DNA of 57,111 nt, filler included, from Basidiobolus ranarum (Eukaryota), in NCBI GenBank assembly GCA_040143965.1. It is 4 parts of 4 records of this genome, joined end to end, with 100 filler letters (N's around TTAATTAATTAA, not from the genome) between each part and the next. Parts side by side here need not be neighbours in the genome. Positions count along the whole stretch, not along the records: positions 1 to 14,227 come from JASJQH010007310.1; 3 more parts are not named here. One strand, given 5' to 3'. The translations under genes and the position numbers were made by a program. Under the pieces are notes generated by a model. That model was given only the letters and a program-made list of their open reading frames with translations. It was not told the origin of the DNA and ran no database searches. Shown piece after piece: positions 8,487 to 9,866 of the stretch (position 1 is its first letter; each line of letters opens with the position of its first letter).

Positions 8487-9866
8487 ATGCGATTCCTGTC
8501 TCTTGCTCTTCTCTCCGCTGCTCTAGTCGCTTCTGCCGATGCGGCTGCTACTGCTGGAAACATATTCTATGGAAACTTTGTGCACTCCGTCAATATCACC
8601 AACCTTGAGTATGTTGGTAAGGGTGCGATTGTGGTGGACACTGCCGGAAATATTATCCAAGTCGAGAGAAATGTGACTGAGCGACAGATTAGTCAGATTG
8701 GAGATAAGCACCGAGTGAGTATCACTCGTTTGGGTGATCAACAATTCATCATGCCCGGTTTGATCGATACTCACATCCACGCACCCCAGTATGTTTTTAC
8801 CGGATCCGGAATGGACTTACAACTTCTTAACTGGTTGAATACATACACTTTCCCCCGTGAGGCACGCTTTAATGACACCAGGTATGCCAATGATGCCTAC
8901 AACAAAGTAGTTGACCGTTTAATCCGTGGTGGAACTACCGCAGCAAGTTATTACGCCACCATACATCTAGACGCTAGTAAGATTCTAGCCGACATTGTTG
9001 AACGTAGAGGGCAGCGTGCGTTCGTAGGTAAAGTTAATATGGACCGCAATTCCCCTGATTACTATATTGAAAATACGCAGCAAAGTTTGAAAGATACCGA
9101 AACCTTTATTCAATATGTTCTTGGAAAGAAAAACTCCAGAGTGGCCCCTATTGTCACCCCTCGCTTTGTTCCCTCCTGTACATCAGATTTGATGAGAGGA
9201 CTTGCCGCATTAGCCAACAAATATAATGTCCCTATTCAATCTCACCTCGACGAGAATTTGGATGAAATTGCCTGGGTCAAGGAGCTTCACCCAGATCAGC
9301 CTGATTATACCTCGGTATACGATGCCCATGGTTTGTTGAATAATCGTACCATCATGGCTCATGTGGTCTACCCAACTGACGAGGAACGAAAGTTACTTAA
9401 GCAACGAGGAGCTGGTATTTCCCATTGCCCCAACTCCAACTTGAGTCTTCGTAGTGGGATAGCCAAGGTTCGCCAGATGTTGACTGAAGGACAAAAGCTC
9501 AGTCTTGGGACTGATGTTTCTGGTGGGTACTCACCATCCATCCTCAACAGTATACGTAATGCTTATTTTGCAGGTATTGCACGTAGCTTTGATCACCCTG
9601 AAGATAAGTACCTCCAGCTTCCCGAGATTTTCTACATTGCCACCCTTGGTGGAGCCGATGTACTTGGAATGAAAGAGCAGCTTGGAAACTTTGTTGTTGG
9701 TAAGAAATTTGATGCCTTGATCATCAATCCTAGTACCAGAGGTTCGCCCATAGATCTCTTTGATCATGACAAGCTCAATACTATATTCGAGAAGTTCATC
9801 AACAACGGTGATGATCGTAACATTGTCGAAGTATTTGTTGATGGTAAATCCATTCATCGCCTATAA
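8487..9866 (+). CDS. GUD1: Guanine deaminase (amidohydrolase superfamily) with a predicted N-terminal signal peptide
   Basis: Intronless 459-aa ORF. Motifs PGLIDTHIHAPQY (HxH), VTPRFVPSC, QSHLDEN, MAHVVY, HCPNSN, LGTDVSGG, VGKKFDAL and GDDRNIVEVFV. The N-terminus is MRFLSLALLSAALVASADA. Confidence 0.93.
   Translation: MRFLSLALLSAALVASADAAATAGNIFYGNFVHSVNITNLEYVGKGAIVVDTAGNIIQVERNVTERQISQIGDKHRVSITRLGDQQFIMPGLIDTHIHAPQYVFTGSGMDLQLLNWLNTYTFPREARFNDTRYANDAYNKVVDRLIRGGTTAASYYATIHLDASKILADIVERRGQRAFVGKVNMDRNSPDYYIENTQQSLKDTETFIQYVLGKKNSRVAPIVTPRFVPSCTSDLMRGLAALANKYNVPIQSHLDENLDEIAWVKELHPDQPDYTSVYDAHGLLNNRTIMAHVVYPTDEERKLLKQRGAGISHCPNSNLSLRSGIAKVRQMLTEGQKLSLGTDVSGGYSPSILNSIRNAYFAGIARSFDHPEDKYLQLPEIFYIATLGGADVLGMKEQLGNFVVGKKFDALIINPSTRGSPIDLFDHDKLNTIFEKFINNGDDRNIVEVFVDGKSIHRL

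Follow-up and report, generated by a model that had tools for sequence, protein, structure and literature searches.

Guanine deaminase (GDA), which serves purine salvage and catabolism, is regarded as an enzyme of the cytosol: does the copy that we describe here, from the fungus Basidiobolus ranarum, work outside the cell? The gene lies at 8487–9866 in the window, by which we mean the whole stretch of DNA that was analysed (57,111 nucleotides, filler included, comprising four parts of assembly GCA_040143965.1 joined end to end), and it is the only GDA locus present there. The first-pass annotation, which was made from the sequence alone, had read it as a complete enzyme with all of its metal-binding and catalytic motifs, placed immediately behind a signal peptide, carrying five N-glycosylation sequons and lacking HDEL, and had inferred from this a paralog that has been redirected to the secretory pathway, where it might release ammonia from environmental guanine, such as that of arachnid excreta or ectotherm skin, and alkalinize its surroundings. 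As an alternative, it had offered peroxisomal targeting through the C-terminal tripeptide HRL, which it likened to that of yeast Eci1.

The open reading frame (ORF) is intronless and extends from ATG to TAA on the forward strand, encoding 459 amino acids; no intron is required. We refer to its product as P0001, and other P numbers denote homologues in the protein collection. An in-frame stop is located upstream of the ATG at 8421, and the next in-frame methionine after Met1 is residue 88, which is already within the conserved domain, such that the ATG at 8487 would be the sole workable start, barring an unseen upstream exon. By its sequence and predicted fold, the product is a guanine deaminase of the amidohydrolase superfamily (EC 3.5.4.3), an assignment that is based on profile score, conserved columns and fold match. 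It scores 441.9 bits against the NCBIfam equivalog model TIGR02967 (guan_deamin; cut-off 375.4) over residues 41–453; the only Pfam matches are PF01979 (Amidohydro_1; E-value 9e-63) and PF07969, and the best solved relative found by phmmer is human GDA (2uz9; E-value 4e-123 over residues 23–456). Conservation was assessed in an alignment of the 120 nearest proteins, namely six rows of the Basidiobolus clade described below and 114 GDAs from outside it. All 80 of the columns with a conservation of at least 95% in the latter are retained by P0001, including Arg226–Phe227 and the HCPNSN loop; in the six clade rows there are only three departures from these columns, all within two fragmentary gene models. 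His96, His98, Gln101, His253, Glu256, His292 and Asp343 are all present, and all fall in invariant columns. In GuaD-type enzymes, the catalytic set is given as HxH, Gln, HxxE, His and Asp, with the Gln stabilizing the reaction intermediate (PMC12828455).

The AlphaFold2 (AF2) model, calculated from a 38-row alignment, has a mean predicted local distance difference test score (pLDDT) of 91.9 and a predicted template modelling score (pTM) of 0.90, and presents the expected (β/α)8 barrel with its composite β-sandwich. Its best match in Foldseek is again human GDA 2uz9, with template modelling (TM) scores of 0.91/0.94, a root mean square deviation (rmsd) of 1.6 Å and 47% sequence identity, and the TM scores against yeast GDA are 0.92/0.93; the top five matches comprise human and yeast GDA entries together with 3e0l, an engineered human GDA variant (TM scores 0.91–0.95; rmsd 1.5–1.6 Å). 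With a profile score above the cut-off, every near-invariant column retained and the motifs intact, the first-pass reading of a complete GDA is borne out.

Ahead of this domain lies the feature that raises the question. Residues 1–34 read MRFLSLALLSAALVASADAAATAGNIFYGNFVHS; 22–26 residues precede the first conserved strand, and the alignment with human GDA begins at residue 23. The leader contains one Arg and one Asp, and has a 15-residue stretch free of charged residues, Asn, Gln, His or Pro, the mean Kyte–Doolittle (KD) hydropathy of which is 2.17. It also contains two small-x-small motifs, A15-S-A17 and A17-D-A19, that place small residues at positions −3 and −1. Nineteen-residue windows with a mean KD of at least 1.6 start only at residues 3–4, and because the mature part never rises above 1.03, there is no other membrane segment, nor a tail of the glycosylphosphatidylinositol (GPI) type. 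In the AF2 model, residues 1–19 have a pLDDT below 50 and are drawn as a detached helix (residues 5–18); the fold begins at residue 23, and the rest of the chain averages approximately 92.

To call signal peptides across the family we applied a crude rule: an uncharged 10-residue window with a mean KD of at least 1.8, starting at residues 2–12, and a −3/−1 site within the 10 residues after it. The rule is passed by P0001 and by 6 of the 12 clade rows in all, as against 3 of 114 other near matches and 5 of the 149 proteins that represent the wider family. Five of these eight outsiders pass through the hydrophobic conserved first strand only, P0250 has an extra N-terminal domain, and P0034 and P0145 bear genuine N-terminal extensions of a different character; no second clear signal-peptide GDA was seen among the 114 near matches and 149 representatives. 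Judged from its sequence, the leader is real and uncommon within this family, and its make-up is that of a cleavable signal peptide, as the first-pass annotation had proposed: the hydrophobic core and the ASA and ADA motifs are present, and both lie outside the folded domain. Since the pre-domain segments in the clade (22–26 residues) contain at most one Arg or Lys, and have a low hydrophobic moment over their first 18 residues, the leader looks unlike a mitochondrial presequence.

The closest proteins to P0001 are all from Basidiobolus, two from Basidiobolus meristosporus (88 and 78% identity) and one from B. ranarum (75%). In a maximum-likelihood tree of 35 rows, which sample the 120 across fungi, holozoans, animals and amoebozoans, all nine Basidiobolus rows form one clade (support 99/97), within which the group containing the window protein (six rows; 100/100; stem length 0.42) is sister to a group of three rows, the N-termini of which are plain and hydrophilic (100/100). 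Six further members came from cluster look-ups, and an 18-row tree, from which the N-termini had been removed to keep the trait itself out of the data, recovered one clade of 12 (100/99) with the same topology. It divides into two subclades, one made up of the window protein and P0002, the other of four B. ranarum and six B. meristosporus rows; by species, there are at least seven gene models in B. meristosporus and four in B. ranarum. Thus, in answer to whether signal-peptide GDAs group together, for which the first-pass annotation had suggested a phylogeny, they form a single clade confined to Basidiobolus, and its sister group consists of GDAs from that genus without a signal peptide. Horizontal transfer from bacteria was considered and rejected, as the clade falls among the fungal GDAs, next to the other Basidiobolus copies.

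Six of the nine near-full-length clade models bear the leader (P0001, P0003, P0121, P0004, P0123 and P0125), and the leader sequences have diverged from one another; of the remainder, P0002 begins inside the hydrophobic core, and P0122 and P0126 are without a leader. Because leaders are found in both subclades and in three species (the source of the window being counted apart from the B. meristosporus and B. ranarum protein rows), they would most simply be ancestral to the clade. Two of the leader-bearing B. meristosporus models, P0003 and P0121, are nearly identical and have consecutive accession numbers on the same 44.5-kb contig, from which they are probably a tandem duplicate.

The three sister proteins (P0007 and P0008 from B. 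meristosporus, and P0009 from B. ranarum; 54–56% identity) have the same catalytic residues, and presumably represent the housekeeping cytosolic enzyme. They differ from the clade in their hydrophilic N-termini, where the longest stretch free of charged residues, Asn, Gln, His or Pro is only five, in their longer and different C-termini, in the absence of the N36, N129 and N286 sequons, and in having seven or eight cysteines. By contrast, each of the nine near-full-length clade members has two cysteines and no more, Cys231 and Cys314, in columns that are Cys in, respectively, 109 and 111 of 111 other GDAs. For comparison, a set of 200 GDAs from outside the clade, 420–520 amino acids long, has a minimum of four and a median of nine. 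At five positions where the three leaderless Basidiobolus paralogs all have Cys, the clade has Ser, Ser, Asp, Val and Ala.

The five sequons reported in the first-pass annotation are all confirmed, being located at N36, N62, N129, N286 and N318. As the bare count is not above chance, only positional conservation is taken as evidence (Table 1). By its distribution, the N318 sequon is ancestral and is no evidence of secretion; the other four are enriched in the clade, and the AF2 model places them in turns, in loops or at the ends of helices. The purging of free cysteines and the fixing of new sequons are what would be expected of a protein that folds in the endoplasmic reticulum (ER) and works outside the cytosol. 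Taken with the clade structure and the intact active site, they lend support to the core of the earlier proposal, that this paralog has been redirected to the secretory pathway.

Human GDA/cypin (2uz9, 4aql) and yeast Gud1 (6oh9, 6oha) have in common with P0001 the fold and the HxH, Gln, HxxE, His and Asp motifs, and are cytosolic enzymes with no hydrophobic N-terminal extension, the name cypin itself denoting 'cytosolic PSD-95 interactor' (PMC11694556). To this plan, P0001 adds a 22-residue signal-peptide-like leader and clade-specific sequons, and it has only two cysteines. A functional analogy may be drawn with the ADGF/ADA2 (CECR1) adenosine deaminases, which possess a signal peptide and act on an extracellular purine substrate. 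These, however, have an adenosine/AMP deaminase domain, a nucleoside substrate and roles in animal signalling; Pfam finds neither such a domain nor the ADGF N-terminal domain in P0001, and the likeness is functional only.

The explanation that we favour, and consider probable, is that P0001 is an active zinc-dependent GDA that enters the ER, loses its leader by cleavage after Ala17 or Ala19, is glycosylated and is released, and that it deaminates guanine to xanthine and ammonia outside the cell. The nascent chain would enter the ER, where removal of the first 17–19 residues would leave three to eight ahead of the first strand; N-glycosylation could follow on as many as four loops at the surface (N36, N62, N129 and N286), and the protein would then leave the hypha by the default route, given that it lacks signals for ER retention or GPI attachment and any membrane segment. 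Once outside, it would convert guanine to xanthine and ammonia, to be taken up by the fungus as a nitrogen source. The clade itself would have arisen by duplication of an ordinary cytosolic GDA, and then multiplied within Basidiobolus. The use and cleavage of the signal peptide, the glycosylation, the release, the extracellular guanine substrate and the nutritional role are all steps that we infer.

In the literature searched, no report was found of a secreted, extracellular, periplasmic or secretory GDA. Among papers that mention both GDA and signal peptides, most of them judged by titles and the starts of abstracts, none describes such an enzyme, and nor do the available portions of PMC8778642, PMC10927894 or PMC9224576. 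The first of these, which surveys how families have expanded in early-diverging fungi, places GDA in MEROPS M38 and reports abundant urease in the Basidiobolales, and the portion available is silent on secretion (PMC8778642). A study of zygomycete secretomes makes no mention of deaminases or purines in the main text, and its Table S6 lists two PF01979 orthogroups among the predicted secreted proteins specific to Entomophthoromycotina, with fidelities of 0.75 and 0.38 (PMC9391592); the latter value would equal three of eight genomes, and three Basidiobolus genomes were sampled in that study. Its Table S8 gives six predicted secreted M38 proteins in B. meristosporus B9252, two in CBS 931.73, one in Umbelopsis sp. 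AD052 and none in C. coronatus, S. cerevisiae, Zychaea or U. ramanniana (PMC9391592). The count of two for CBS 931.73 equals the number of its full-leader GDA models (P0003 and P0121), which may be the proteins counted, and M38 also covers urease, allantoinase and others; neither the S6 orthogroups nor the S8 counts have an established link to the GDA clade.

Several observations weigh against secretion. The same Table S8 gives no secreted M38 protein in B. heterosporus (PMC9391592). Our signal-peptide calls come from a heuristic rule and not from a trained predictor (SignalP, DeepLoc), and its crudeness counts here. Within the clade, three models from B. meristosporus, namely P0122, P0126 and the fragmentary P0005, are without a leader, and are nested among leader-bearing copies; either these are gene models missing their first codons, or the leader has truly been lost from some copies. 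The number of sequons is ordinary, five or more being found in 1252 of 5000 shuffles, and it was dropped as evidence of secretion. Moreover, the zinc amidohydrolases of the GDA family are known as cytosolic enzymes, and no purine-catabolism or transporter genes, or purine cluster, are found among the neighbours of the gene in the window. We also list on this side the 14-codon upstream ORF (uORF) that precedes the GDA start: if transcribed, it could dampen or regulate translation of the GDA, a point that is relevant only where the transcript starts upstream of it.

Of the alternatives, the one that survives best, unlikely as we consider it to be, has the protein entering the ER without being released, such that it would work in a compartment of the secretory pathway, most plausibly the vacuole, on purines from RNA turnover, or would stay bound to the wall. 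The signal peptide, the depletion of cysteines and the sequons fit this equally well, and fungal vacuolar sorting is not readable from sequence alone. In yeast CPY and PrA, however, the vacuolar sorting signals are carried by N-terminal propeptides, and the three to eight residues that would remain after cleavage in P0001 (two to three in the subclade labelled B) leave no room for one. Furthermore, neither the C-terminus nor the 19-residue KD scan of P0001 revealed an ER-retention signal (HDEL or KDEL), a GPI tail or a further membrane segment; the absence of HDEL had been correctly recorded in the first-pass annotation, the C-terminus being HRL. Finally, the existence of at least seven copies, including a pair with adjacent accessions, is typical of environment-facing enzymes, albeit this is a weak argument.

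Release from the cell could also be accepted and the substrate questioned. Dictyostelium has extracellular pterin and folate deaminase activities, and it is conceivable, if improbable, that P0001 is secreted to act mainly on another 2-amino-4-oxo heterocycle (pterins, antimetabolites of the 8-azaguanine type, or ammeline), in which case its purpose would be detoxification or signal removal, and not nutrition. The long stem of the clade (0.42) is in keeping with such a change, as are seven columns with a conservation of 75% or more elsewhere that differ in every clade member. Additionally, enzymes of the GuaD cluster take several related substrates (PMC12828455), and human GDA takes guanosine analogues (PMC11694556). 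Against this, P0001 scores above the cut-off of the GDA equivalog model and retains all 80 near-invariant columns, Gln101, Arg226–Phe227 and the HCPNSN loop included. Most of the seven changes are either conservative (Leu/Ile, Leu/Met, Val/Ile) or remove a Cys, and one of them, Arg218, is common to the cytosolic paralogs; the exception is Ser363, the column for which is Ser in 95% of other GDAs and Gly or Ala in every clade member, making this the one non-conservative clade-wide change without Cys involvement. Substrate contact has been demonstrated for none of the seven.

The C-terminal tripeptide bears on the last alternative. The consensus for the type 1 peroxisomal targeting signal (PTS1) is (S/A/C)-(K/R/H)-(L/M), and HRL resembles a weak version of it. 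Clade members end soon after the last strand with HRL, HKL, HRI or HRV, with His at −3 throughout and Ile or Val at −1 in some, which does not fit that consensus; given these variants, the tripeptide has not been preserved as a PTS1. A signal peptide at the N-terminus would, besides, act first, and the peroxisomal route suggested in the first-pass annotation is weakened; we give it little weight. Overall, that the N-terminal stretch is unused as a signal peptide, leaving the enzyme cytosolic, peroxisomal via HRL or membrane-anchored by an uncleaved helix, seems very improbable despite the clade models that have no extension and the other hydrophobic or presequence-like extensions of the unrelated eukaryotic GDAs P0034, P0108, P0110 and P0115, as the clade stretch of 13–19 residues contains Ser and Thr, is followed by small-x-small and is short for a membrane anchor, the segments are too poor in Arg and Lys, and of too low a hydrophobic moment, to resemble a mitochondrial presequence, and a cytosolic location leaves both the loss of five cysteines and the gain of conserved sequons unexplained.

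Returning to the secreted GDA, what might it be for? Basidiobolus is a gut associate of frogs and reptiles, and an occasional human pathogen. We suggest, with limited confidence, that the genus has turned a housekeeping cytosolic GDA into a multi-copy family of secreted, glycosylated enzymes, which could mine barely soluble, solid guanine as a nitrogen source in the amphibian and reptile gut and in dung. If so, the guanine might come from the excreta of the mites and spiders on which the host feeds, or from guanine-rich host material, and extracellular purine mining would be part of the lifestyle of a herptile-gut and dung fungus. This would be the first extracellular GDA system described in a eukaryote, and a clean case of new function by relocalization, in which duplication, leader gain, cysteine purging and the gain of glycosylation sites could be traced on a small tree with a cytosolic sister. 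A naturally secreted, cysteine-poor GDA could also suit low-purine food processing, for which GDAs are reportedly being explored. The ammonia produced might alter the pH nearby, or the way in which mites behave; these animals void guanine with their faeces and respond to both guanine and ammonia (PMC10927894). The ecological idea is plausible for an insect-dispersed herptile gut symbiont, as Basidiobolus is described (PMC9391592).

Beyond Basidiobolus, a scan of metagenomes for close relatives gave a best match that is 46% identical, with no environmental Basidiobolus-like copy. Just one of the 80 metagenome loci, L001, passes the crude rule. Its ORF (1138–2610; 490 amino acids) scores 377 bits against TIGR02967, relative to the cut-off of 375.4, and is 45% identical to P0001 over residues 87–456. 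The leader of the L001 protein, which is of the Sec type, has a basic n-region, a hydrophobic core and A-x-A, as in a signal peptide, and then a long linker rich in Ala, Glu and Thr. On account of this leader, exported GDAs may also exist in bacteria. The context of L001 is bacterial (dense genes, code 11), and it is not specifically related to the Basidiobolus clade, the place of which is among the fungal GDAs; its neighbours are NUDIX, flavin-reductase-like and Sir2-like genes. Other eukaryotic GDAs, most of them from transcriptomes or metagenomes (P0034, P0108, P0110, P0115 and P0079), have N-terminal extensions of 30–80 residues that are presequence-like or membrane-anchor-like, and GDA may have been relocalized more than once. 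In P0134 (908 amino acids), P0185 (1047), P0252 (1123), P0203 (778) and P0250 (611), the GDA domain occupies the C-terminal end of a longer protein, and from their sequences these are fusions.

Table 1. Features of the GDA locus in window coordinates; for the sequons, occurrence is given in the six aligned clade rows, the three leaderless Basidiobolus paralogs and the other GDAs of the alignment
Feature	Position	Strand	Basis or distribution
Putative TATA-like element, TATAAAA, 62 bases 5′ of the ATG	8419..8425	+	Sequence reading
Out-of-frame uORF, 14 codons plus stop, ending 13 bases 5′ of the GDA start	8429..8473	+	Sequence reading
Complete intronless GDA coding sequence, 459 amino acids plus stop	8487..9866	+	ORF, profile, phmmer, Foldseek
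Residues 1–19, predicted cleavable signal peptide: n-region MR, h-region F3–A15, candidate cleavage after A17 or A19	8487..8543	+	Sequence, crude rule, KD, pLDDT, alignment
Residues 23–459, predicted mature catalytic domain (β-sandwich and (β/α)8 barrel)	8553..9863	+	phmmer, AF2, Foldseek
Sequon N36-I-T, turn between strands 23–36 and 39–51	8592..8600	+	4/6 clade, 0/3 leaderless Basidiobolus, 1/106 others (1/109 combined)
Sequon N62-V-T, loop ahead of helix 65–75	8670..8678	+	4/6 clade, 1/3 leaderless Basidiobolus, 6/110 others (7/113 combined)
H96-I-H98-A-P-Q101, metal-binding HxH and intermediate-stabilizing Gln	8772..8789	+	Invariant columns; role of Gln from PMC12828455
Sequon N129-D-T, junction of helices 113–129 and 131–147, clade-specific	8871..8879	+	6/6 clade, 0/3 leaderless Basidiobolus, 0/111 others (0/114 combined)
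H253-L-D-E256, metal-ligand His and catalytic Glu; D255 in place of the Cys common in other GDAs	9243..9254	+	Alignment
Sequon N286-R-T, loop ahead of strand 288–292	9342..9350	+	6/6 clade, 0/3 leaderless Basidiobolus, 16/111 others (16/114 combined)
H292, catalytic or metal-site His; adjoining V293 is Cys in 87/111 other GDAs	9360..9362	+	Alignment
Sequon N318-L-S, inside the HCPNSN active-site motif; N318 invariant	9438..9446	+	Sequon in 59/111 other GDAs
D343, metal-binding, nucleophile-activating Asp	9513..9515	+	Invariant column
C-terminal H-R-L plus TAA; no HDEL/KDEL, no hydrophobic GPI tail	9855..9866	+	Sequence, KD scan
AATAAA, candidate polyadenylation signal, 126 bases 3′ of the stop	9992..9997	+	Sequence reading

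The window is AT-rich, with a G+C content of 37.7% compared with 44.7% for the gene. In the 1 kb upstream of the start (7487–8486), there are nine HGATAR motifs, of the GATA-factor type, relative to 4.55 per kb window-wide; this excess is a weak hint of nitrogen-catabolite control, and was judged too weak for use. The neighbours of the GDA gene are a sulfotransferase-like gene and those for a two-RRM protein, an M41 peptidase fragment, a Zap1-like zinc finger, a GNAT and a triple-KH protein. A run of N at approximately 14230–14330, read as an assembly gap, breaks the gene for the M41 (FtsH/Yme1-type) peptidase, and the window has 264 N overall. The sulfotransferase-like gene (4072–5165, forward strand) spans two overlapping frames, 4072–4776 and 4602–5165, consistent with either an intron or a frameshift.

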